Made by a program: the position numbers and the translations under genes
The notes under the pieces: model-generated
What the model was told of the DNA's origin: nothing
The model's input: only the letters and a program-made list of their open reading frames with translations
Databases searched by the model: none
Source: an uncultured virus (IMG/VR IMGVR_UViG_3300014057_000711)
Lineage: Duplodnaviria; Heunggongvirae; Uroviricota; Caudoviricetes
IMG/VR virus record: IMGVR_UViG_3300014057_000711
Reading direction: 5' to 3' (one strand)
DNA length: 20,000 nt
Shown: piece after piece, positions 5,449 through 20,000 of the stretch
Position numbering within the stretch: the first letter of the stretch is position 1
Layout of the letters: every line of letters begins with the position of its first letter

Positions 5449-5952
5449 ATGAATTTTCTGATTGACACCCTGAAAGGCGCGTCGCTGCACGTGCACGCAG
5501 TATGGCTGGCGCTGGCCTACATCGCCGTGATAATCGCCATGGCGGTTGACTTCGTGGCGGGTCTGAGAAAGGCAAAGCAGGCTGGCATAGCATCGACATC
5601 CCGTGGTTATAAAATGACCACGGAGAAGGCAGCGAAATACTTCCTGCCGATGCTGTGCCTGACGTGCGTAGACCTGATGACCTCGGTCATTCTGCCGGCA
5701 CCGTTCTTCACGATGCTCATGGCGGGATTCAACATCTTCTGCGAATGGAAGTCGGTGCTGGAGAGCACGCATGACAAGCAGGAACTCCGGGACAAGGCGA
5801 ACACGTTCAACGTGATACTCAAGAACAAGGACGACATAGCCGCAATCGTCCTGCAAGCCATGCAGATGATGGAGAAAAAGAATGAGCTGGAGAAAGCTAA
5901 CCAAAGTATTAACGAACAAACACCACAACAAAATGAAGAAGAACTTCCTTAA
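5449..5952 (+). CDS. Phage holin family protein
   Basis: Hydrophobic transmembrane segments, DFVAGLRKAK..G...TSRGYK.T..K motif, charged C-terminus, upstream of the endolysin. Confidence 0.8.
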   Translation: MNFLIDTLKGASLHVHAVWLALAYIAVIIAMAVDFVAGLRKAKQAGIASTSRGYKMTTEKAAKYFLPMLCLTCVDLMTSVILPAPFFTMLMAGFNIFCEWKSVLESTHDKQELRDKANTFNVILKNKDDIAAIVLQAMQMMEKKNELEKANQSINEQTPQQNEEELP

Positions 5953-6659: not shown

Positions 6660-7268
6660 ATGTCTAAAAAAGTAGTAATCCTGGGCACAGCCCATGGGAG
6701 CAACACTCCAGGGAAGTGTTCTCCCGACAAGAAATTCCGTGAGTATAAATTCAGTCGTGAGGTTATCAATGACCTCAAACCAAAGCTTGAGGCTTTGGGG
6801 CTGACAGTGTATATCGACATGCCGCAGGACGTGGTGCCTCGTCCGCCTGTGGCAGAACTCGCACAGCGATGCAGGATTGTGAACAATCTGTGCAGGAAGC
6901 ACGGCACGGCAAACTGCGTGTATGTGAGCATCCATGTGAACGCTGCTGGCTCGGGTGGTGTGTGGCGCACCGCACGTGGCTTCGCGGTCTATGTCGCACG
7001 TCAATGCTCGGACAACAGCAAGCGCCTTGCCAAAATGCTTTGGGACAAGGCGATGGACTTGGGGCTGCGTGGCAACCGGTCGGTGCCATCAGCCCGATAC
7101 CACCAGGCGAATTTCTACGTCATCAAGAACACGCATTGTCCTGCGGTTCTCACCGAGAACCTGTTCCAGGACAACCATGAGGATGTGGACTTCTTGATGT
7201 CGCCTGAAGGCAAAGCGAAAATCGTGGAACTGCACTATGAGTGCATCAAAGCTTACTGTGGACTATGA
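6660..7268 (+). CDS. N-acetylmuramoyl-L-alanine amidase (Amidase_3 family) endolysin
   Basis: Zinc-ligand motifs TAHG, RE, VSIHVNA and AVLTENLF; no signal peptide. Confidence 0.92.
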   Translation: MSKKVVILGTAHGSNTPGKCSPDKKFREYKFSREVINDLKPKLEALGLTVYIDMPQDVVPRPPVAELAQRCRIVNNLCRKHGTANCVYVSIHVNAAGSGGVWRTARGFAVYVARQCSDNSKRLAKMLWDKAMDLGLRGNRSVPSARYHQANFYVIKNTHCPAVLTENLFQDNHEDVDFLMSPEGKAKIVELHYECIKAYCGL

Positions 7269-7858
7269 AAAACTCACTAATCACTCATCTCTCATCACTA
7301 ATCATGCTAATGGCAGCTATGCTGATATTGGCATCAGGCTGCCGCTCGCAGAAGAAGGTGGTGAAATCAGAGGTCGCTATCGCTGACACGTGCTCGGTGA
7401 GCAGCTTATCCACCACGGCCGTAGAGCGGCTGAGGTGGATGGACAGCATCTCACTGCACTTCGACAGCCTGGAACTGGAATGGCGCGTGCCTGCAGACCA
7501 TTTTGCTGAAATCGGCAACATGGCCTACGACACGGCGCAAAACTCGTTGTATAGGCCGGCGGCCGGATCTGCGGCGAAGGGGGCTGCCCTTTTCCCAGCG
7601 CAACCTCGCCAGGGCTCGGTTTTGCTGAGGGCAAGACATGCATCACTGGGGAAGGTCGGCAGACTTGAGCGAGGCTCTGCGAGCTGCGCTCAGCAAGCCG
7701 ACAGTGTGATGCACCACCGCACATCAGCCTCCGACATGAAGACAGACAACGACACCACAGCAATCGCCAAACCTCCCGACCTGGAATGGCTCACATTTGC
7801 AATCATCGCTGGACTCGTGGTGGTGTTTATAATAATCTTCTGGATTGAATACGAATAG
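7265..7858 (+). CDS. Putative unimolecular spanin (lipoprotein with C-terminal transmembrane helix)
   Basis: ATGA overlap with the amidase stop; hydrophobic signal ending in lipobox LASG-C; C-terminal WLTFAIIAGLVVVFIIIFW helix. Confidence 0.65.
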   Translation: MKNSLITHLSSLIMLMAAMLILASGCRSQKKVVKSEVAIADTCSVSSLSTTAVERLRWMDSISLHFDSLELEWRVPADHFAEIGNMAYDTAQNSLYRPAAGSAAKGAALFPAQPRQGSVLLRARHASLGKVGRLERGSASCAQQADSVMHHRTSASDMKTDNDTTAIAKPPDLEWLTFAIIAGLVVVFIIIFWIEYE

Positions 7859-7906
7859 CTGAAGTTAGTATTTTTTTCTCATAAAGTGAATTTTTATGGT
7901 TATTGG

Positions 7907-7942
7907 GAAAGGCTGGACCGTGAGGTTCGGTCTTTCTTTTTT
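7907..7942 (+). terminator. Intrinsic terminator of the lysis operon
   Basis: GAAAGGCTGGACC-GTGA-GGTTCGGTCTTTC stem with G-U pairs, followed by a T-tract. Confidence 0.8.
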
Positions 7943-7951
7943 GCCTGGTGC

Positions 7952-8032
7952 AAAAGAAAGACTGCGCCCACGTCTCTCGACGAAAAGCGCAGACAACTAA
8001 AAAGGAATGTATTAATTACGATGGTTAAAATT
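7952..8032 (-). ncRNA. Candidate ~80-nt small RNA
   Basis: Consensus - strand promoter at 8039-8070; 3' hairpin CTGCGC..CGTC-GAGA-GACG..GCGCAG (7962-7992) followed by a U-rich tail. Confidence 0.45.
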
Positions 8033-8038
8033 CTAATG

Positions 8039-8070
8039 CAAATATAGTGTGTTTTTATGACATTCGCAAA
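8039..8070 (-). promoter_or_regulatory. Bacteroidetes sigma-A promoter TTTG-N20-TATATTTG
   Basis: + strand CAAATATA at 8039-8046 and CAAA at 8067-8070. Confidence 0.65.
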
Positions 8071-8136
8071 TGTTTTCAGCCAAACATTGGTTTTTATAGG
8101 TTTTTGTAGTGTTATTATTTACCTCGGGTACCAGGT

Positions 8137-8240
8137 GGTTTACTCATGGTTTACTTTGTTAAAAAAATGGCATCTGATAATCAGCGGTTTACAAAGGTAT
8201 GGTTTACTCTTGATTACTCATGGGTGCGCAAGTGGTTTAA
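8137..8240 (+). repeat. Cluster of GGTTTAC direct repeats
   Basis: GGTTTAC at 8137, 8148, 8186 and 8201, GGTTTAA at 8234; interrupted palindrome CTGAT-A-ATCAG at 8174-8184. Confidence 0.6.
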
Positions 8241-8346
8241 TCTTGCAGTGTTGAGTCCAGACGCAGACCGCCGCCATTGATGTTGACTATAACAAGCTGA
8301 TGTGGTGCCTCATACCGCCGCTTGACTGACAGAATTGCCGTGTCAT

Positions 8347-8544
8347 TGAATTTTGTGAAACATATTTTTACTTAGCAAAGTTAGCGCATCAGACCACCGC
8401 ACAAGGACAGGCCCTGGCGGGTTTTGCTGAAAAATCTCCACACCTGCGGGTAGTATTTTTCGGCAAAATCCTTGTGCTCGCAGTGGTCTCTACAGATGCG
8501 CACCTTATTGCACGTAAAAATTATGTTTCACTTCACAAAATTCA
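8347..8544. promoter_or_regulatory. ~200-nt long imperfect hairpin, candidate single-stranded-DNA promoter
   Basis: Six nested complementary segments; - strand TAACTTTG at 8376-8383 faces a mismatched segment; ends 6 nt before the ATG at 8551. Confidence 0.6.
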
Positions 8545-8550
8545 TCTATC

Positions 8551-8781
8551 ATGACACAGCAATTCTTCAACATCAGTCAAGCTCCAAGCCAAGGGGCACA
8601 AGAGAACATTCATGTCAACATCAATGACGGCTCAGCCAATGTATGGCTCGGTGATACTCCAATCTGCACTACAAACTGCAAGGATGCACTCGAACTTATA
8701 GTGCAGACTCTGGCTGACAAGTTCGACGCAAAGCTTCCTGCCAGGTCAGAAATGATATACGACACAGTGATGCAATGGTGA
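8551..8781 (+). CDS. Small acidic hypothetical protein (76 aa)
   Basis: ATG after an A-rich leader, protein-like composition, flanked by the long hairpin and a 13-bp inverted repeat. Confidence 0.75.
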   Translation: MTQQFFNISQAPSQGAQENIHVNINDGSANVWLGDTPICTTNCKDALELIVQTLADKFDAKLPARSEMIYDTVMQW

Positions 8782-8787
8782 TTTCTC

Positions 8788-8819
8788 ATCAGTCCTCCCG
8801 TCAAATCGGGAGGACTGAT
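8788..8819 (+). terminator. Perfect 13-bp inverted repeat after the small ORF (terminator or 3' stabiliser)
   Basis: ATCAGTCCTCCCG-TCAAAT-CGGGAGGACTGAT; no clear U-tract. Confidence 0.5.
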
Positions 8820-8889
8820 AGCAACCGACAGATGTGAGAAGAAAGGACAGCTGGACATTACCAATAGAGACCGCCATCTTTTAAACGCA

Positions 8890-11410
8890 CGCTGCCCCTG
8901 AAGGGGGAATCGTGGCACGCAGGACTGCCACGGCAGCACTCGCCGGCATCGGCAGTCGCTGGCATCAGCGAAGGGATGTGCATCCCACAGAGAGAGTGCC
9001 GCCCCATTCCATGCCGCAACCCTGCACTGCGTTACGGGTTGCGCCGTGGGCTGGGTCGCACCGCTCATTCCGCCATCGGCACACACTACGGAGGCTCCCG
9101 TGGGGCATCGGCCGGCCTGGACCCATGGCTGAGGCCCTGCGCTTATGCAGGCTCCGCTCCCTTGCCGTGGCGACACCCGAGTCGTCTGCGCCGACATCGG
9201 GTATCGCCACTCGTCCGCTACGCTTGCACGCTTGTCCTCCCGATGCCGCACTGCGCCTCCCAAGCTTGTCGTTATCACTCCATTGCCGCTGGCGGGCGGT
9301 GCTGCTGGCACACTCCCTTACGCTTATGCCTACGCGAGCGTTTCACTCTGCAGATGCCATGCTCTTAGTGCTGCACAGGCAGTCCACTCGTGCCATATCA
9401 GCGGCAGAGTGGTGTTCAGTTCCGTGAACTTCACGTCGTTGTTTGTCCGGCGATGCTGGCGCATCGTCGGGTGGAGGCAGCCTCATGCCACACCGACACC
9501 CGTTCCCTCGGCCCGGGTATCGGTGCCGCAGTCGGCATCACATCGCAGCTCGCCGTCCCCACCGCTACGCTTCGGGGGTGCGAGCCGCCAATCAGCACGG
9601 CACGCAACCTGGCGGTGCGAGCCGATCGCCCACATTCCCACCCCTCATATTGCTGCGGCAAGCCTTGCAATCCCTCTAAGTGCCATGACGAAGGCACGCA
9701 GGACTGCCAACACCTGCCATTGCGCCGCCGGCCTCCGTCGTGGGTCAGGCTGGCTCCTGGAGAGTGCTGCATGCCATGGCGCAACCCTGCACTTCTCTTC
9801 ATTTCGCTACGGGTTGCGCTATGGATGACGTACCTTGTTCCCACTGCGGGACAAACGCTCCGAATGAGGGCATGGCGCTTGACGGCCCAGCTTCACGCAG
9901 ATGGCGCTACCTTTCCGCACCGACACCCGAGATTCCTGCGTCGCCGTCGGGTGTCGGCACGGGTGCGCCACTCGCCGTTTCGCTGTTCCTGCGCCATACA
10001 CTCATTCCAAGCTTGACAACACAAGTGTATCATTGTCTCGAAGTGGCGGTACTCTACGCACACTCCATACGCCGCTTGACCCACGAGCGCTGGCGCTCTG
10101 CGGTCGGCAGTCTTCATTTGTGGAGGCAGTCCACTCTGTTGCCGTCGCCATAGCAAAGCGGTGTGCCACTGGCGTAGCACGCATTTGTTCGAGAGAGTGG
10201 CGAGCACTCTCAATCGCGATGCCTACGCTCGTGAGCCGTGCCTGCGGCGGTCGCTGCGCGCGCTTCGCCTGAAGGCCGACGCAGTGGCATGGTCGTCGTT
10301 ACGATGTGTGATGTTGGGCTGCGCTCAACATCTGTACACACATCTTCACTCCTGAACGCACCGACACCCCGCGCCTGCAGCAGGTCGCAGGACTACGCCG
10401 CGCCCGTCATTACGCTCCGTCGTCAAAAGTGCTCTGGTCGTGCCTGATGTGGGACGATGCGGACTCGCATCCGGCTCACGCCCGATGCTTGACGGTGGTC
10501 AGTCCGCAACGCCCCACGGCACTCGCTCGCACACTTGCCGCCGTCTCTCACTCCTATGCTTGCTGACGTCCTAGCTGACTTGCCACAGGCTTTCGCTTGC
10601 GCTCAGGGGTGTCGGTGCAGTATGCCATTGCATCCAGCCTCCAGGCTGTCGCCCACTTGCTCTCTTGAGGCACAGGCTCACGCTCTCCAGCATCGTTGGG
10701 GCAGCTGCGCATTGTCGCCAGGCTGTCTGTAACATGAATACTATCGCCTACACTTGTTACTATTACCTTCATCACTTCAAGCTGGCTTGACATGATTACG
10801 GCTGAAAGCGGTGCTGACACGCTCAATCGAAACCTTCTCCTGCGTCAAAGGTTCGCTTTCGCACGTCAGCGGATTTACCATGCAATCGCCTCATGTGCCA
10901 TGATGCTTTTACAGCTGCGCATCGCCGCCAGTTCATCGGAACAATAATACTATCGCCTTCACTTGTTAATGTCGCCTTCATCACGTCAAGCAGGCTTGAC
11001 ATGATTACGGCTGAAAGCGGGGCTGACACGCTCAATCGAAACCTTTTCCTGCGTCAAAGGTTCGCTTTCGCACGTCAGCGATTTGACCGCACAATCGCCT
11101 TGCTCGGCTTGCCTCGCTTGCATATTCCGATAACGAAAATCGCAGTCGCACGGAGTCGCTACGCAGGGCATCGGGGGGTCTTCCCAGACAGGGACGGTGG
11201 ACACCCCCGTACCCCCGTAAAAGGCTGTATAACAGCCTTGTGACTTCCGCAAAGGCGGAAAGTCGGAACAAACCGTGAACGCCGTTCGACGCTCACGGAT
11301 GATTTACGGTCGAAATCTTTGACCGTAAACGAGAAAAACATGCTTCAGGTAGCATTTAACGTCACTGCGTGACTGGGAACACATTAAGACATGGCTCGGC
11401 TTAATGTCTT
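8890..11410. other. GC-rich, hairpin-dense non-coding region
   Basis: All ORFs here are Arg/Ala/Cys/Pro-rich and non-protein-like; many inverted repeats and internal duplications. Confidence 0.75.
10702..11100. repeat. Tandem duplication, two copies, ~209-bp period
   Basis: 10702-10891 matches 10912-11100; the 88-nt core (10784-10871 vs 10993-11080) has 2 mismatches. Confidence 0.92.
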
Positions 11411-11440
11411 TTAACCGCTATCGCGGTTTGTTTATCTTTG
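11406..11440 (+). promoter_or_regulatory. Promoter GTCTTTT-N20-TATCTTTG upstream of the tape measure gene
   Basis: Same motif and spacing as the sites at 3708 and 16263. Confidence 0.75.
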
Positions 11441-11499
11441 TCTTCGACAAACTGGGAAACTGATTACTCATAACTGATTACGACAACTTAAAAACACCT

Positions 11500-14400
11500 A
11501 TGAGCAACATAAGCACACAAGCAACAGTGAACCTGACCATCAACGGTCAGCAACCTATCCAGGTGCTGCAGCAGCTTCGGCAGAACGCGCTGCAGCTGGA
11601 GAGTGCCATAGCACGGGCGGCGGCAGCGGGCAACCGCACCGACCTTCGCAGGCTGCGCCGTGAGCTCTCTGACACCCGAAGACAAATCCGTGAGATTGAG
11701 TCATCGACTATGCAGGTGGAGAGCGTGATGCGACGGCTAAACCGCGCCACCCCGAACGAGCTGAACCGAACCCTTCAGACGCTGAACCGACAGCTCCAAT
11801 ACATGGAGCGTGGCTCGGCGGCATGGGACTCACATGTCGCCAAGATTCGCCAGGTGAAAGCGGAGATCTCATCGCTGAACGCGGAGATGCGGGCGCAGGA
11901 AGGGTTCTGGAAACGTTTCACACGGACGATGAACGACTGGCAGGCATCGCTGTTCACCGTGGCGGCAGTGCTCTCGGGCGTGGTGATGGCTGGCCGTCGT
12001 GCCGTGACCTCCTATGCCGAGATGGAGGAGCAGATGGCGAACACCCGGAAATACACCCAGATGACGAAGGAGGAGGTGGATAAGCTGAATGAGGCGTTCC
12101 TTGATATGGACACCCGTACCGGGCGAGACAAACTGAACGAGTTTGCGCAGGAAGCAGGCCGACTGGGCAAGACTACCATGGAGGATGTCCAAGGCTACGT
12201 GGAGGCAGCGGACATCCTGTCGGTGGCTCTGGTGGATCTCGGTGAGGGTGCCACTCAGACTATCGCCAAGATTTCCAACATCTTCGGTGTGGAACAACTG
12301 CTTGGAACCAAGGAGGCGATGCTGTCTGTTGGCTCTACTGTGAATGTGCTCTCGCAGAACTGTACCGCGTCTAAGCCGTACCTGGTGGAGTTTGCACAAC
12401 GTTTGGCTGGTGTGGGCGCACAGGCGCACATGACTATACCACAGATTCTTGCCTTCGGTGCTACACTGGATGCCAACGGTCAGAAGGTGGAGATGGCGGC
12501 CTCGGCATTGTCACGTACCATCATGAAGCTGTTCCAGTCGCCTAAGGAGATTGCGGAGTCTGTGGGCCTGGATGTGGAGCAGTTCATCTCGACTCTTAAT
12601 GAATCGACAAACGAGGGTCTGATGATGTTCCTGGAGCGTCTGCACCAGATTGGCGACAAGGACGCGCTGGCGGCTCTCTCTCCACTGTTCAAGGACCTGG
12701 GCATGGATGGCATCCGTATGGCGCAGGTGCTGTCTGTGCTCTCAGGCAAGCTGGAGATGGTACGATGGGAGCAGCAGGAGGCGAACAAGGCTTTCGACGA
12801 GGCTACATCTGCCACCCGTGAGTATGATATCTTCAACAACACGGCGCAGGCTGGCATCGAGAAGGCGAAGAAGCGCATCCATGAGCTGGCAGTGGAACTC
12901 GGTGAGAAACTGCTGCCTGTATACCGCCATATAATGACGAGCGGCAGCGCTATGCTGCGTCTGCTGAACATGGTGGCTGACTTTGTGATTAACCACAAGA
13001 ATGCAATCATAACGGCTGTTGCTGCATGGGTGTCATACACTCTTACGGTGAACGCATCCAACATCGCCTTCAAGGCTCATTACTACTGGCTGGTGCTAAC
13101 GCAGGGGGCGATGCGGCTTCTCTCTACTGTGACTCTTGCGCTGAAGATAGCGTTCTTTGCGGTGACTGGGCAGATTGAGCGGGCAAAGGCTGCATATACT
13201 GCCTTCCATCTGCTGACAAAGAGCACGCCATGGGGAATAATAATAGCGGCCATAACTGCTGTGGGTGTGGCGATATACAACATGGCGACAGCCACCAAGG
13301 AGGCGACGAGGTCGGAGAAGGAGCTGCAGCAGATGAACCAGGAGCTTCAAGAGACAAGGAACAGGTACCAGGAACGTCTTGACGTGGAGAAGCGCCGTAT
13401 CAATGACCTGGTGGCTGTGGCTCGTGACGACAAGGCATCGATGGAGCAGCGCAAGAAGGCGATTGACACTCTTAACCGGATAATCCCCAACTACTGTGCC
13501 AAGCTGGACTCGGAGACGAAGAAGTACCATGAGAACAAGAAGGCTCTTGATGACTACCTTCTTTCTCTGGAGCGCAAGATCCGTCTGGAGTCGAACCGCG
13601 CCGAGTACGAGAGGCTGATCAAGGAGGATGAGCGTCTGTCCCGTGAGATTGCCACGGCACAGGACTATGACAAGGCAAGGGTGCAGGGTGCCATCGACAC
13701 GCACAAAGGAAGCGGAAGCTTCGATATGATTTCGGCTGTGGCTCATGCATACGGCGCGAGCACTACGCCTGGTGGCACCGTTACCGCTGTGCCTGACTCT
13801 AAGCGGGTGAAGGAGCTGAAGGGGCAGCAGGCTGCCGTGCGTATGCAGATAAACAGACTGATTAAATACGCTGGTAAGGAGAACCTGATAAATGCTGGCT
13901 CTGCTGATGTGTCTGAACCCGACATTGTTGACCCGTCTTATACTCCTGGAGGTGGTGGCTCGGGAAGTGGCAGTGGCAGCAGCAAGAGTGGGAGCAGCGG
14001 TAGCCACACCAGTACTCGCACTACCAGTGGCAGTGGCACCACGAAGGCCGAGGACAGGTTTGCGGCAGAGAAGGCCTGGAGGGAGCGGGAGGAGGCACTG
14101 ACGCGCATCTCCTACGCCACAGGTGTGCTTGACTATGAGGAGTACAGCGAGAAGATGAATCAGATAGCTCAGGACTTCTACGAGAAGCAGCTGGCACATA
14201 CTGACCTGAGCGAGAACGAGAGGCTGAAGATTATGGCTCAATATGCCGAGGAGGCCCTGAAGATGGAGGAGCTGAAGTACAAGCACCGCCTGAAGGAGGA
14301 GAAGGACGCATACTCTGAGCTGCGGGCAGAGACTATGCAGGACTATATTGACGGAAAGCTGTCGAAGAACGCCTACGACATGCAGATGGAGAACCTGGAG

Positions 14401-15642
14401 TATGCGCACCTGCGGGCTCTTGTCGACATAGCGGATGAGGGCTCTGACGAGAGAGCCGAGGCTGAGGAGAACCTGCGCAAGAAGCTCATAGAGGGGATGG
14501 AGCGCCGGCAGAGGGAGTACGAGGAGAAGGTTAGGGAGCACCAGCTGAAGCTCAAGGAGATGAAGGACGAGTACTTCGGCAACAATGCCGTGGAGGACAA
14601 GGCGCAGTTTGACGAGGCGATGGCGCTGCTGGATGAGCAGTACAAGAAGGAGCTTGACATGGTGGGTGACAACGCCAAGGAGAAGCTGCGCATCGAGGAG
14701 GCATACGAGAAGGCGAAGCTGGCCCTAAAGAAGAAGTACAACCAGCTCACGGAGACTGACACCAAGAACTTCATGCAGAAGTTCAACGAGGATGCCATGG
14801 AGTGGCTGGAGTCTGATGTGGGAAAGGCTGTCATCAAGTCTATAGAGGCTGTGACATCGGCGTTCTCGTCGATGTTCTCGCAGCTGCGCTCGCTGATGGA
14901 GGCTGAGATGGAGCTGGAGGTGGCGGCTGTGGAGAAGAAGTATGACCGCGAGATTGAGGCTGCACAGGGGAATGCCTACCAGACGAAGCTGCTTGAGAAG
15001 AAGAAGCAGCAGGAGGTGAAGAAGATAAAAGACGAGGCGAACCGGAAGATGTATGCCATGGAGGTGATGCAGGCGCTGGCACAGACTGCCACTTCGGCAA
15101 TAAATGCCTACTCATCGGCTGCGGCGATTCCTCTTGTGGGCTACATCATAGCTCCTATAGCGGCAGCGGCTGCACTGGCGGCTGGAATGATCCAGGTGGC
15201 TGCCATCAGGAAACAGGCGCAGAAGTCAGCGACTGAGGGGTATTCGGAGGGTGGTTTCACACGACCTGGACGTGTTGATGAGGTGGCTGGCGTGGTCCAT
15301 GCCGGGGAATGGGTGGCTTCGCAGAAGTTGCTCGCCTCGCCTGTGGCGCGTCCGCTGATCAACGCTTTGGACTATGCGCAGCGCACTAATACTATAGGCT
15401 CGCTCCGTGGCAGTGATGTGTCACGCTCTATAACGGCACCAGCAGCTATCGCCAATATGCAACCGCAGGTGATAATAAAAGAGAATGCGGAACTGCGAGA
15501 GGCAATTAAGAGGCTGAACGCTCGATTGGATGAGCCGTTTGTTACCGTGAACACCGTGACTGGCGATATGGGTATCAAGCAGGCGCAAGATGATTACCAA
15601 AGGCTGATGAATAATAAGTCCCCCAAGAATAAACGCAAGTAA
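11500..15642 (+). CDS. Phage tail tape measure protein
   Basis: 1380 aa, helical/coiled-coil, TP901-type core region, Ala-rich hydrophobic segments, C-terminal GYSEGGFT...AGVVHAGEWV motif. Confidence 0.9.
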   Translation: MSNISTQATVNLTINGQQPIQVLQQLRQNALQLESAIARAAAAGNRTDLRRLRRELSDTRRQIREIESSTMQVESVMRRLNRATPNELNRTLQTLNRQLQYMERGSAAWDSHVAKIRQVKAEISSLNAEMRAQEGFWKRFTRTMNDWQASLFTVAAVLSGVVMAGRRAVTSYAEMEEQMANTRKYTQMTKEEVDKLNEAFLDMDTRTGRDKLNEFAQEAGRLGKTTMEDVQGYVEAADILSVALVDLGEGATQTIAKISNIFGVEQLLGTKEAMLSVGSTVNVLSQNCTASKPYLVEFAQRLAGVGAQAHMTIPQILAFGATLDANGQKVEMAASALSRTIMKLFQSPKEIAESVGLDVEQFISTLNESTNEGLMMFLERLHQIGDKDALAALSPLFKDLGMDGIRMAQVLSVLSGKLEMVRWEQQEANKAFDEATSATREYDIFNNTAQAGIEKAKKRIHELAVELGEKLLPVYRHIMTSGSAMLRLLNMVADFVINHKNAIITAVAAWVSYTLTVNASNIAFKAHYYWLVLTQGAMRLLSTVTLALKIAFFAVTGQIERAKAAYTAFHLLTKSTPWGIIIAAITAVGVAIYNMATATKEATRSEKELQQMNQELQETRNRYQERLDVEKRRINDLVAVARDDKASMEQRKKAIDTLNRIIPNYCAKLDSETKKYHENKKALDDYLLSLERKIRLESNRAEYERLIKEDERLSREIATAQDYDKARVQGAIDTHKGSGSFDMISAVAHAYGASTTPGGTVTAVPDSKRVKELKGQQAAVRMQINRLIKYAGKENLINAGSADVSEPDIVDPSYTPGGGGSGSGSGSSKSGSSGSHTSTRTTSGSGTTKAEDRFAAEKAWREREEALTRISYATGVLDYEEYSEKMNQIAQDFYEKQLAHTDLSENERLKIMAQYAEEALKMEELKYKHRLKEEKDAYSELRAETMQDYIDGKLSKNAYDMQMENLEYAHLRALVDIADEGSDERAEAEENLRKKLIEGMERRQREYEEKVREHQLKLKEMKDEYFGNNAVEDKAQFDEAMALLDEQYKKELDMVGDNAKEKLRIEEAYEKAKLALKKKYNQLTETDTKNFMQKFNEDAMEWLESDVGKAVIKSIEAVTSAFSSMFSQLRSLMEAEMELEVAAVEKKYDREIEAAQGNAYQTKLLEKKKQQEVKKIKDEANRKMYAMEVMQALAQTATSAINAYSSAAAIPLVGYIIAPIAAAAALAAGMIQVAAIRKQAQKSATEGYSEGGFTRPGRVDEVAGVVHAGEWVASQKLLASPVARPLINALDYAQRTNTIGSLRGSDVSRSITAPAAIANMQPQVIIKENAELREAIKRLNARLDEPFVTVNTVTGDMGIKQAQDDYQRLMNNKSPKNKRK

Positions 15643-18752: not shown

Positions 18753-20000
18753 CTATTTCTTACCATATAACACCCAGTCGAGTACTTTACGGTTAGCTTC
18801 ATCCACTTTCGTCTGGTCAAAGTCAATGTAGATGTCAGTGACTGTGTTTCCACCATGCCCCAGGGCATGGGCTATCGTGTCCTTGGGGATGTCGAGGCTT
18901 GCAGCGATGGTCGCCCAGGAATGACGAGCCCAATAACTAGTGATTTCTGGGAAAAGAGGGTGACGAATTTTCTTGCCACCACGACCTACACGCTCATAAG
19001 GTCCCATCTGCTTTAATGCTTTGTTCATCTTGAGCATGAAATCCTTATGCTTTTTCCATCTATCCAGAATATCAATGAGATAGTCCTTGCCACGGTAACG
19101 CTCAATAATTTCCAACGCTTCGGGCTCAACCTTAATTGAATAAAGGCGATTTGTCTTGGAACGGTAGAACTCAGCCCTACCATCTCTAATCTCTTTAAGA
19201 TTGCATAAATCAATGACATTTATCCCAATGAGCATGAACATAAGCTTGAAAATATCTAAGTATTTCTGCTCACGGACATCACATTTGCAATCAAAAAAAG
19301 TGCGTAACTCGTCAACCTTCAAATTGCGTTTTGGTGTAGCAACAGATCTAATTTTGAAGCGACGAAATGGATAGAAGTTGGTGATCTCGTCATCAATGGC
19401 CTCGTTAAACACCGCACGGATGTTGCGTAAATGAATGTTCCTGGTGTTTTTAGATGGCGACGTCTTCGATAAGAACACATCGAAACTCGTAAGCCATTCC
19501 TTGGTGATGTCCTCGAATGCGAGCTTTCCAAGTTTCTCCTCACTTCCAACAAATGCTACCATCCGTTTATAGGAGTGCATATAAATCTCTTTTGTGCTTT
19601 CTTTCTTACTTCCTGCAAATGAAAGATAACGATAAGCAAAGCGAGTCTTGTCCAACTTGGCCTTTTCCAACCTCTCAGCCTTCTCAGGATTTAAAGCCTT
19701 TTCTACTTCCAACTTTAATTCCTTGACATTCATGGCCGATAAAGTTCCATCATCTTTTAATCTAAAAAGGACTCTATCAGCTATTAGCTTTTTGTTGGTT
19801 AGGTAGAGGTTGATTCTTTCCTTTTCTGGATGATTGATTACTTGACAAGTACCCTTGTCCCATTGATCTACATTAAGCCTTACATCTAAAGATATGTAAG
19901 AAGTTTCTTTTTGATGCGCCAAGGCAATCTTTAAGTCTCCCTGGCCTTGACTGTTCTTTCCCAGTCTCCTCGTTTCGAAGTAAAATCTTGTGTTAGCCAT
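18753..20000 (-). CDS. int: Site-specific tyrosine recombinase / integrase (Bacteroidetes type)
   Basis: 415 aa; N-terminal arm-binding-like domain, central SAM-like domain, RSKT, YWARHSWAT, ALGH and TDIY motifs. Confidence 0.92.
   Translation of the reverse strand: MANTRFYFETRRLGKNSQGQGDLKIALAHQKETSYISLDVRLNVDQWDKGTCQVINHPEKERINLYLTNKKLIADRVLFRLKDDGTLSAMNVKELKLEVEKALNPEKAERLEKAKLDKTRFAYRYLSFAGSKKESTKEIYMHSYKRMVAFVGSEEKLGKLAFEDITKEWLTSFDVFLSKTSPSKNTRNIHLRNIRAVFNEAIDDEITNFYPFRRFKIRSVATPKRNLKVDELRTFFDCKCDVREQKYLDIFKLMFMLIGINVIDLCNLKEIRDGRAEFYRSKTNRLYSIKVEPEALEIIERYRGKDYLIDILDRWKKHKDFMLKMNKALKQMGPYERVGRGGKKIRHPLFPEITSYWARHSWATIAASLDIPKDTIAHALGHGGNTVTDIYIDFDQTKVDEANRKVLDWVLYGKK

Follow-up and report, generated by a model that had tools for sequence, protein, structure and literature searches.

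We propose that a structured module lying between the lysis cassette and the tape-measure gene of a prophage encodes a large structured RNA of a new family on its minus strand, and we put the probability of this reading at roughly 0.4. The window, that is, the whole 20,000-nucleotide stretch of DNA analysed here, belongs to a rumen Bacteroidales prophage; G001, the nearest genome record, was used in place of the window's own assembly. In our model, the GC-rich part of the module (about 8830-11300) would encode a new family of large, multi-domain structured RNA, antisense to the adjoining phage genes. This RNA would be built of repeated hairpins of ~145 nt and a related element, each presenting the apical loop GACGCAGGAR, and the hairpins would flank a multi-branched domain of ~430 nt, as predicted in relatives, closed by a long-range helix. 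It would form part of an accessory cassette that moves between prophages, integrative elements and chromosomal islands within a single genus of rumen Bacteroidales. The active molecule would be the RNA itself, probably acting in the lysogen, and its repeated loops may bind a protein or pair with complementary loops, in the manner of a sponge or scaffold.

The module occupies a non-coding gap (7859-11499) with the lysis cassette on one side and the tape-measure gene on the other. A holin gene (5449-5952) and an amidase gene (6660-7268) were verified as the lysis-side flank, and a tape-measure protein of 1380 aa (11500-15642) as the opposite one. The lysis operon is ended, after the gene at 7241-7858, by a terminator-like hairpin with a T-run (7905..7938, plus strand), which is kept in L002 and L003, two relatives without the module. 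A single small conserved gene, ORF76, lies in the gap beside some 2.6 kb of non-coding, GC-rich DNA, and the conserved cassette within the gap spans about 8264-11180. The module that the preliminary description had placed at 8347-11410 is real, but somewhat larger than given there. Close to the lysis side lie three TGGTTTACTCATGGTT-like repeats (8136..8225; repeat family D4), overlapped by a 65-aa ORF (8057-8254) whose only Pfam match is below threshold.

The GC-rich part of the module is non-coding. The nine longest ORFs of the region besides ORF76 had no Pfam family match. Compared with the 94%-identical copy L029, the 110 substitutions between 8880 and 10700 are distributed over the codon positions as 40/40/30, with no periodicity, and the indels in the same interval measure 1, 10, 10, 7 and 5 nt. 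These data uphold the earlier impression of ~3 kb with a single credible ORF of 76 aa.

Within the non-coding DNA lie two diverged tandem super-units on the minus strand (8890..10480; 61-68% GC), a pair of ~770 nt each at 8890-9690 and 9670-10480. Model R1 recognises hairpin unit 1 at 9110..9251 (90.2 bits), a degenerate unit at 9431..9575 (26.4 bits) and hairpin unit 2 at 9861..10004 (94.2 bits), all on the minus strand. A second hairpin element follows on the same strand in two copies (model R2), at 10730..10901 (178 bits; loop GACGCAGGAG, as in the units) and 10939..11110 (189 bits), and here a 190-nt duplication of 87% identity joins 10702-10891 and 10912-11100. Both duplications named in the preliminary description were thereby verified. 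The units, ~145 nt long, and the second element have the invariant loop GACGCAGGAR in common. In relatives, a predicted multi-branched domain of ~430 nt with a long-range closing helix lies between the hairpins. The second element is also found upstream of the tape-measure gene in relatives that have neither ORF76 nor the array. Finally, a cluster of small hairpins (11156..11302), which includes a minus-strand terminator-like hairpin (11298->11273), is kept in all close relatives. Inspection of 17 small hairpins revealed no GNRA or UNCG tetraloops on either strand.

The region had also been described as containing strand-biased GCGNAGC motifs. Within 8347-11410 the motif indeed occurs nine times on the minus strand and once on the plus strand, against an expectation of 2.5 +/- 1.6, and nine was reached in none of 300 shuffles. 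The bias itself is not particular to the module, as 16 of the 18 sites outside it, across coding parts of the window, are likewise on the minus strand. At least two of the nine sites (9217 and 9564) belong to a conserved GCGUAGC stretch inside the hairpin units rather than to free mini-hairpins.

With RNA parameters, 300-nt windows of the minus strand reach z-scores of -8.0 and -8.9, compared with means of -1.05 (plus) and -1.10 (minus) in fifteen coding-flank windows, so that the nested hairpins noticed earlier do fold beyond shuffled sequence. In an alignment of 25 hairpin units, 97% of the cells are paired and 11 of 27 pairs show changes on both sides; with a covariation score of 0.311 the alignment lies above the 0.158 of shuffled ones, a score of this size occurs in none of 500 shuffles, and pairing in slid controls is at most 47%. 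The second element (13 sequences, including those of the distant loci L002-L004) is 94.5% paired, with 24 of 41 pairs changed on both sides, and its covariation is matched in 0/500 shuffles of an alignment that was fitted to the model. The inter-unit domain, where 5 of 126 pairs covary, is too conserved for covariation.

The same comparisons single out one strand. Consensus energies for minus and plus are -36.0/-23.2, -37.9/-22.8 and -137.1/-123.0 kcal/mol, and over the union of predicted pairs the minus strand has 288 G.U cells to 155 on the plus strand. With model R1, full units score 90-157 bits on the minus strand, whereas the plus strand gives about 18-23 bits. Single-window z-scores are also lower for the minus strand in most windows with RNA parameters; with DNA parameters the two strands give similar z-scores and the advantage is gone, which indicates that the asymmetry comes from G.U-type pairs, better suited to RNA. 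The structure is thus conserved with compensatory changes, and the minus strand is the folding strand, as the preliminary description had favoured.

Promoters in relatives hint at minus-strand transcription of the array. Upstream sequence of at least 600 nt was available for 19 arrays; in 12 of them a TAnnTTTG box lies no more than 900 nt away on the model strand, and in six of these loci (L023, L024, L027, L028, L050 and L042) the sequence TTTG-N19-TACCTTTG stands at a fixed distance of ~313 nt. In the promoter-bearing relatives a terminator-like hairpin with a U6 run, identified by eye, follows about 45 nt downstream, and the array promoter may therefore make just a small RNA. No canonical minus-strand promoter was found within 900 nt of the array in the window, L029, L022, L026, L049, L057 or L051, nor upstream of the second element in L002-L004. 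Further along the minus strand of the window, TTTG-N20-TATATTTG, with its -7 box at 8046->8039, precedes a hairpin with a U-rich tail (7950..8075); the whole resembles a small-RNA or leader unit, and a copy of it stands at the right end of the hairpin array in relatives. On the plus strand, a terminator-like hairpin (11413-11428) is followed by the tape-measure promoter with the -7 box TATCTTTG (11433-11440; whole feature 11413..11440), a box kept at this position in six of the seven related loci scanned, L003 being the exception. Plus-strand terminator-like hairpins thus stand on both sides of the module, and another, by reading of the sequence, follows the cargo gene in L026, from which it follows that the array is more than a 3' UTR. 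RNA library X6 yielded strandless, low-depth contigs in which the phage structural genes are covered equally, and four runs mapped to the whole window gave low-depth contigs only, with the phage genes covered as well. A large structured ncRNA, which the preliminary description had kept as its main alternative, is at least as well supported as the single-stranded DNA that it preferred.

ORF76 (8551..8781, plus strand) encodes a conserved 76-aa protein with no assigned function, represented by nine homologues at 66-99% identity and by 22 genomic loci. Pfam, PHROG and PADLOC gave no match, and the AlphaFold2 model has a pLDDT of 53.6, which makes it unfit for a fold search. Directly 3' of the gene, a conserved hairpin (8788..8819) shows compensatory stem changes between loci and has no U-tail on either strand. 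The start of the gene is embedded in a giant imperfect palindrome (8270..8631, centre near 8443; inverted repeats I2 and I6), whose right arm includes the start and first 27 codons of ORF76 and whose left arm is a degenerate inverted copy. Its inner repeats lie at 8355-8369 / 8517-8531 and its outer repeats at 8270-8287 / 8614-8631. The arms show compensatory changes between loci, and the DNA fold of 8262-8640 has an energy of -100.7 kcal/mol versus -47.9 +/- 4.8 for shuffles (z = -11). The left arm carries TAACTTTG on the minus strand (8376..8383, read 8383->8376), a perfect match to the Bacteroides -7 consensus TAnnTTTG as given in the part of the source relied on here (PMC4747536). In duplex DNA this box is directed away from ORF76; driving the gene from it would require a folded-back minus strand or an inversion of the segment. 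Its orientation is identical in all ten distinct sequences, nine with TAACTTTG and one, L027, with GAACTTTG. No TAnnTTTG box for ORF76 was found on the plus strand within 750 nt, and the expression of ORF76 without a plus-strand promoter is left unexplained by an RNA made from the array.

Together with the strand polarity, this arrangement favours the model of the preliminary description, taken here in a form widened to ssi/sso-type signals; overall, we regard that model as unlikely. In it, the minus strand would become single-stranded in transfer, rolling-circle or strand-displacement replication, the hairpins would prime, protect or mark nicks, and the folded palindrome promoter would transcribe ORF76 before second-strand synthesis. 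Two independent features, the array folding and the TAACTTTG box on the far palindrome arm, which is the only perfect -7 box close to ORF76, have one polarity in common, both being minus; in the minus-strand hairpin TAACTTTG would be the non-template strand, with a start about 30 nt before the ORF76 ATG. The arrangement is kept in 10/10 distinct sequences, and ORF76 has no plus-strand box within 750 nt. Of the putative hairpin promoter, the hairpin is strong and a -7 box sits on the correct arm, but the -33 element looks poor by eye, with no clear box, and two sigma-70-type matches were counted where chance alone would give 1.9. DNA-parameter energies are lower for the minus strand in 8/9 windows; against this stand the similar z-scores of the two strands with the same parameters and the conserved G.U-type pairs, better suited to RNA. 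HUH enzymes nick at motifs in hairpin loops, and the invariant loop motif is reminiscent of such sites. In L020 and L026/L050 the arrays follow immediately after primase/DUF3987 or HTH_17/HTH_36 genes, in the same orientation. Known single-stranded signals, however, span about 100-300 nt, and the structured region covers about 2.5 kb, including the 430-nt domain with its long-range helix. The main context is a tailed prophage, and tailed-phage DNA is double-stranded. The status of a leading region is not supported: none of the 16 scanned ORFs of the window is a relaxase or Rep, and the relaxase family PF03432, the one family searched, was found in none of three module-bearing host genomes, which may be incomplete. 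A more specific form of the model appears slightly more doubtful still: a Bacteroidales counterpart of plasmid leading regions on prophages and satellite-like elements that would enter or replicate as minus-strand ssDNA, with the array priming or protecting that strand and a 360-nt palindrome promoter, built on the Bacteroides -7 box, firing ORF76 and the neighbouring surface-protein cargo genes before the DNA is double-stranded again.

The distribution of the module bears on a further alternative. In rumen Bacteroidales a recurring cassette has the order palindrome, ORF76, optional lipoprotein cargo genes and hairpin array, and it occurs in prophages, in primase- or excisionase-bearing integrative elements and in chromosomal islands. 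Arrays have between one and five units. Among 40 further genomes of one genus the cassette turned up in 3, and among 150 others of the order in none; it is patchy and mobile. In L030 and L056 the arrays have chromosomal settings with no phage or mobility gene found nearby, a point in favour of the RNA reading. A phage database search gave a single match of 73 nt, and an IMG/VR scan for the hairpin pattern, from which the window's own record was absent, gave none. Three IMG/VR loci picked up by a 17-mer were rejected as chance: L014 and L016 match the window over just 23 nt, and L015 not at all.

Prophages and small primase/excisionase elements with the module share genomes, with three arrays in G006 and two in G159. 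This could point to a cis-acting duplex site, such as an origin, packaging region or recombination hotspot, that is common to helper phage and satellite-like elements and whose cruciform-prone repeats would be bound by a phage or satellite protein, an idea that we consider improbable. PICI-type satellites have their origins right after replication genes, where the module also lies in the satellite-like loci. The loop motif recurs 4-5 times per array in a single orientation, as iterons would, and the second hairpin element belongs to the core of the phage lineage. The spacing of 140-700 nt is nonetheless unlike that of iterons, and the array is GC-rich, not AT-rich. ORF76 and the array are absent from the close relatives L002-L004 and are thus not essential. 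Nor would a duplex site explain why G.U-type mismatches outnumber A.C-type ones by 288:155 on one strand.

Alternatively, the palindrome may be an ordinary Bacteroidales phase switch, an invertible promoter for ORF76 and cargo, with the array an unrelated RNA or set of selfish repeats. This would account for the 15-nt inverted repeats (93% complementary) around a 147-bp segment with a perfect TAnnTTTG box, which would lie about 41 nt upstream of the ATG once inverted, and the sources, in the parts drawn upon, describe such promoters as common in Bacteroides (PMC4747536; PMC8748976). Contigs L021, L023 and L017/L018 end within 110 nt upstream of the ATG, L022 and L041 end inside the first ORF76 codons, and the cargo genes encode surface-type proteins. 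We nevertheless hold it to be quite improbable, as the ON orientation occurs in 0/10 distinct sequences, no strand-switch joint is seen there in the contigs of four runs, no dedicated invertase lies nearby, and the segment is itself palindromic, with arms that run on into the gene well beyond the repeats, an uncommon feature in invertons. The likeness to the invertible promoters of the cited account (PMC4747536) is one of inverted repeats around a TAnnTTTG promoter upstream of surface-protein genes; the differences are the single orientation and the placement of the repeats within a palindrome of ~360 bp that includes the 5' end of the gene.

That the region consists of non-functional expanding palindromic repeats, or is a plus-strand 3' UTR or regulatory leader of the tape-measure operon, would agree with the variable copy number (1 to 5 units per array; a 209-nt duplication collapsed in the contigs of 4/4 runs, joint 10822->11059) and with the window array having no promoter of its own, yet it is very improbable, since orthologous units are preserved in identity and order from genome to genome, unlike the paralogous ones, which differ from one another. 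Selection on pairing is indicated by the compensatory changes and by G.U positions that are conserved. A plus-strand RNA would have A.C mismatches, and between the region and the tape-measure promoter there is a terminator-like hairpin.

The predicted minus-strand RNA was also compared with known systems. Rfam covariance models gave no match at gathering score over the whole window; within 7800-11600 there were only four chance-level matches (E 0.49-4.3, 15-21 bits versus cut-offs of 80-91). GOLLD and ROOL models did not match even at E <= 5. In the portions of the literature consulted, GOLLD and ROOL are large, elaborately folded RNAs of unassigned function, often in prophages and also outside them, and ROOL, 581 nt on average, was first found in cow rumen metagenomes (PMC5737381; PMC12286853). 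The module resembles them as a large, elaborately folded non-coding element in and outside prophages. It differs in its Bacteroidales host, in having no tRNA neighbour, and in its tandem, similar long hairpins with one loop motif, which total about 1.5-2.5 kb compared with the 581 nt of ROOL; no tRNA was found in the region. Frpo/ssi elements of plasmid leading regions are, in the excerpted account, long imperfect hairpins with a promoter box in the stem and a small gene downstream (PMC11541004). Here the layout is similar, with a putative promoter box in the stem that would be active towards the small gene only from the folded template strand; however, no oriT, relaxase or conjugative context was found, the box is of the Bacteroides -7 type rather than sigma-70 -35/-10, and the structured part has ten times the length.

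Rolling-circle plasmids have single-strand origins (sso) and ssDNA phages have complementary-strand origins; both are strand-specific hairpin regions that work only as ssDNA and carry a short conserved motif in the loop. The module is likewise a strand- and orientation-specific hairpin region with a short conserved loop motif, but no Rep gene was found, its hairpins are far more numerous and larger, and it resides in a tailed prophage. The sponge RNAs CsrB and RsmZ are single transcripts with many hairpins and a short GGA-containing loop motif; a transcript of the array would be of this kind, though with stems of about 30 bp and units of about 145 nt.

Several other identities were tried and rejected. 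The attC core of integrons has the consensus R''/R' = RYYYAAC ... GTTRRRY. GTTRRRY was found at the stem base in 0/25 units (alignment A3), the closest sequence being GTTATGG, which speaks against an attC array (CALIN), and no ORFs lie between the hairpin units, as they would in a cassette array. The DRT3 ncRNA is placed downstream of DRT3b with an ACACAC template loop in the section of the report used here (PMC13174585). In our case the loop is GACGCAGGAR and the window has no RT. Both the ncRNA and a decoy of it were rejected, as only one locus, L056, has DRT3a/b next to the units, and there they stand on the wrong side of the RT genes, some 730 nt upstream of DRT3a. A diversity-generating retroelement, which has a TR/VR repeat pair and an RT beside a target gene of C-type-lectin/FGE fold, was also discarded: no Pfam reverse transcriptase was found in the 16 window ORFs or in the scanned flanking ORFs of L020, L026 and L030, and no TR/VR pair exists, since no part of the FGE-sulfatase cargo genes in L026 and L019 is duplicated within their loci. 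In frame +2, all 11 stops between 8899 and 10735 are TGA; the code-4 translation is Arg-, Cys- and His-rich and has no Pfam match, and the flanking genes are open in the standard code, which speaks against a hidden gene in another genetic code. Homology to a decayed gene, named in the preliminary description as a finding that would count against it, is absent: tblastx against 12 related phage loci gave no protein-level similarity in 8300-11100.

If a minus-strand transcript exists, it would rank among the longest structured ncRNAs known from bacteria or phages once rRNA and group II introns are set aside, and it would give Bacteroidales a large ornate phage RNA built as tandem hairpins. This rumen example would then join the small set of GOLLD, ROOL and OLE, whose function awaits establishment. 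Should the single-stranded reading be true instead, the range of single-strand promoters and priming signals would widen from proteobacterial plasmids to the phages and satellites of Bacteroidales, with a different promoter grammar. With either reading, the cassette is a hotspot at which prophages swap surface-protein genes, which bears on phage-host dynamics in the rumen.

A minor observation concerns a plus-strand CGCAGGA hairpin (8918 and 9697) that is complementary to the unit loops and could form kissing loops with them; we give this little weight because the CGCAGGA motif varies in relatives.

Between the lysis genes and the tape-measure gene, the window carries a novel structured element, conserved and strand-specific, within a mobile accessory cassette, which comprises a palindrome, the small gene ORF76, optional cargo and a hairpin array. 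The window covers part of the genome of a temperate tailed phage, and its nearest related record (G001; 20,093 bp) is 48% complete according to CheckV. Pfam and PHROG matches assign a holin (5449-5952), an N-acetylmuramoyl-L-alanine amidase (6660-7268), a tape-measure protein of 1380 aa (11500-15642) and, on the minus strand, a Bacteroidetes-type integrase (18753-20000). Related sequences derive from Bacteroidales genomes of rumen or gut origin, with labels such as Muribaculaceae and Prevotellaceae. Within the gap (7859-11499), only ORF76 (8551-8781, plus strand), which encodes 76 aa, has homologues, in agreement with the single credible reading frame of the preliminary description. These form nine protein clusters (66-99% identity), and ORF76 was located at 22 genomic loci. 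The long ORFs in the gap are composition artefacts. GC rises to 0.61-0.65 in 9001-10500, where C outnumbers G on the plus strand, and no Pfam match was obtained for nine of the gap's long ORFs or for a TGA-readthrough translation of frame +2. Compared with a 94%-identical copy in L029, 8880-10700 differs by 110 substitutions (40/40/30 by position) and by indels of 1, 10, 10, 7 and 5 nt. In frame +2, all 11 stops in 8899-10735 are TGA; a hidden gene was considered here and rejected as a composition effect, the translation being unlike protein. Neither a tRNA nor an Rfam family was found in the region.

From left to right, the gap begins with the terminator closing the lysis operon (7905-7938), followed on the minus strand by a promoter, hairpin and U-tail (8075->7950). 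Three short direct repeats of the TGGTTTACTC type (8136-8225), which could be regulator binding sites, separate this small-RNA-like unit from a palindrome of ~360 nt (8270-8631). The right arm of the palindrome contains the ORF76 start, and the left arm is a degenerate inverted copy. Beyond ORF76 lie a conserved hairpin (8788-8819), two diverged tandem super-units of ~770 nt each (8890-10480), a second hairpin element, present twice (10730-10901 and 10939-11110), a conserved group of small hairpins (11156-11302) and a terminator-like hairpin with the tape-measure promoter box TATCTTTG (11413-11440). Both duplications reported earlier are present, as the super-units and within 10702-11100. The latter, a 209-nt tandem duplication, is polymorphic: in contigs of 4/4 runs, 10822 and 11059 are linked through 26 other letters, corresponding to the single-copy form.

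The unit at 7950-8075 (minus strand) is a small movable sub-module in which a canonical Bacteroides promoter precedes a leader of ~35 nt, a GC hairpin that shows a compensatory change, and a U-run. Its place varies: the window has it to the left of the cassette, L023, L027 and L028 (L028:7880-7937) have it to the right of the array, and L024 has it in both positions (L024:2258-2379 and L024:5017-5060). It resembles a small-RNA gene or an attenuated leader.

Folding of the region exceeds that of shuffled controls, with minus-strand z-scores of -8.0 (9001-9300), -5.8 (9751-10050), -8.9 (10951-11250) and -6.8 (11101-11400), against means of -1.05 and -1.10 for fifteen coding-flank windows. A ~145-nt unit, first spotted through the motif GACACCC, was aligned in 25 copies from 12 loci. 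On the minus strand it folds into a long hairpin whose 27 pairs are formed in 97% of cells (slid controls: ≤47%). Both sides have changed in 11 of the 27 pairs, and the covariation score is 0.311 versus 0.158 in shuffles, none of 500 reaching the observed value. Three pairs are mostly G.U on the minus strand, equivalent to A.C on the plus strand, and the consensus fold reaches -36.0 kcal/mol for the minus versus -23.2 to -23.8 kcal/mol for the plus strand. The apical loop is GACGCAGGAA or GACGCAGGAG in nearly all aligned units. R1, the covariance model of this unit, detects two units at 90 and 94 bits and a third at 26 bits on the minus strand of the window, scores on the plus strand being about 18 bits. 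Homologues, folding against shuffles and covariation bear out the structured non-coding module first observed. The strand bias of GCGNAGC also described stands in number, with nine minus-strand sites in the region where 2.5 ± 1.6 are expected; coding parts of the window show the bias too. At least two of the nine (9217 and 9564) fall within the units' conserved GCGUAGC stretch. A weak R1 match (19 bits, E = 0.003) at L010:5290-5461 (minus strand), within a stretch of 60-66% GC that precedes the tape-measure gene in a more distant phage (57% identity), could be distantly related to the unit.

The second hairpin element has the same loop as the unit. Across 13 sequences, in an alignment fitted to the model, 94.5% of its cells are paired and 24/41 pairs changed on both sides. 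Its covariance model, R2, matches the minus strand of every module-bearing locus searched that extends far enough, and also L002-L004 (44-58 bits), phage relatives without ORF76 and array. In the minus strand of relatives, the inter-unit stretch forms a ~430-nt domain with a 23-pair long-range closing helix (consensus energy -137.1 kcal/mol, versus -123.0 on the plus strand); only 5/126 pairs covary, because the domain is too conserved.

At the DNA level, 13 of the 22 ORF76 loci are homologous to the cassette over its full length (about 8264-11180). The order amidase, gene 7241, ORF76, array and tape-measure gene is kept in L024, L027 and L028, and L022, whose contig starts inside ORF76, shares the part from ORF76 to the tape-measure gene. 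L002-L004, whose tape-measure segment is 68-73% identical, retain a 1.2-1.8-kb non-coding gap holding the second element. Elsewhere the cassette neighbours primase and DUF3987 genes (L020), HTH_17 and HTH_36 genes (L026, L050), a DRT3a/DRT3b pair (L056) or housekeeping genes (L030). Scanning metagenomes yielded a further 21 loci, most with full-scoring R1 units on one strand and only ~20-bit echoes on the other. In three host genomes the number of arrays is between one and three; R1 matches occur in 3/40 other genomes of the genus and in 0/150 further genomes sampled from the order. This is a mobile element with a narrow and patchy distribution. A full-text literature search by general terms found no published description.

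We tentatively favour a large structured RNA from the minus strand, with a probability of about 0.4. Among the union of predicted pairs, G.U-type cells number 288 on the minus and 155 on the plus strand, and such pairs account for the strand asymmetry. The minus-strand z advantage holds with RNA parameters and vanishes with DNA parameters. The Bacteroides -7 promoter box TAnnTTTG (consensus from PMC4747536) occurs on the model strand in 12 of 19 arrays with ≥600 nt of upstream sequence; in six of these it is part of a complete TTTG-N19-TACCTTTG at a constant distance of ~313 nt. Plus-strand terminator-like hairpins on both sides of the module also speak for RNA. Against it, no canonical minus-strand promoter was found at the window's own array or in six relatives, a hairpin and a U6 run come after the fixed promoter, and no GNRA or UNCG loops were seen. 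Contigs from the sole RNA library are unstranded and of low depth, and phage genes are covered too.

The preliminary description proposed that the minus strand may be exposed as single-stranded DNA, as in a conjugative leading region, and would then express ORF76; we consider this unlikely. Its best point is the palindrome, with hairpin-promoter geometry and the same polarity as the array. No plus-strand TAnnTTTG box for ORF76 lies within 750 nt, and a perfect box, TAACTTTG, sits on the minus strand of the left arm, directed away from the gene and conserved in 7/8 loci aligned at the palindrome. In a self-folded minus strand, this arm could become the non-template strand of a hairpin promoter for ORF76, by analogy with Frpo of plasmid leading regions (PMC11541004). 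As DNA, minus strand 8262-8640 folds at -100.7 kcal/mol (z = -11). However, this is a tailed prophage with a very large structured region, and no relaxase or Rep was found among the 16 window ORFs scanned, nor the PF03432 relaxase in three host genomes that carry the module. More doubtful is a cis-acting site in duplex DNA. Inversion of the 147-bp segment between inverted repeats 8355-8369 and 8517-8531 could also drive ORF76, and invertible promoters are known in Bacteroides (PMC4747536). The box orientation is identical in 10/10 distinct sequences, including the one-base variant GAACTTTG of L027, and an inverton with an unrelated array seems improbable. Least credible are non-functional repeats or a plus-strand leader.

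The cargo between ORF76 and the array differs among relatives (FGE-sulfatase fold, TonB_C, CarboxypepD_reg-like, unknown), with a 5' junction, ...GAAACCGAAAAATGAGCAAATATTTGGTTTTTAATGAAAAA, common to L019, L020, L024, L025, L026, L031 and L050. Comparison of these sequences suggests that surface or lipoprotein cargo genes are swapped as cassettes via recombination at conserved flanks. At L029:1332, L030:6005 and L031:6005, homology to the window begins sharply at 8636, just past the outer palindrome arm, so that ORF76 lacks its first 27 codons. Two to three copies of TTCCAAAATCCCACTTTTT precede this point, which may be a recombination or insertion junction; the sequence upstream of it in L030 resembles, by eye, the conserved end of an Rhs/YD-repeat core, a candidate match. 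Two prophage remnants (L049:3225-3626 and L061:4754-5155), which keep only tape-measure residues 1-73, 240-265 and 277-295, adjoin one unit and a second hairpin element that is intact; an integrase and an AAA_14/DUF4143 gene are close by. At L056:6144-9790, ~730 nt downstream of two hairpin units and on their strand, is the DRT3a/DRT3b reverse-transcriptase defence pair (PADLOC E = 2.6e-81 and 6.1e-177); the proximity is probably coincidental, owing to where the island lies.
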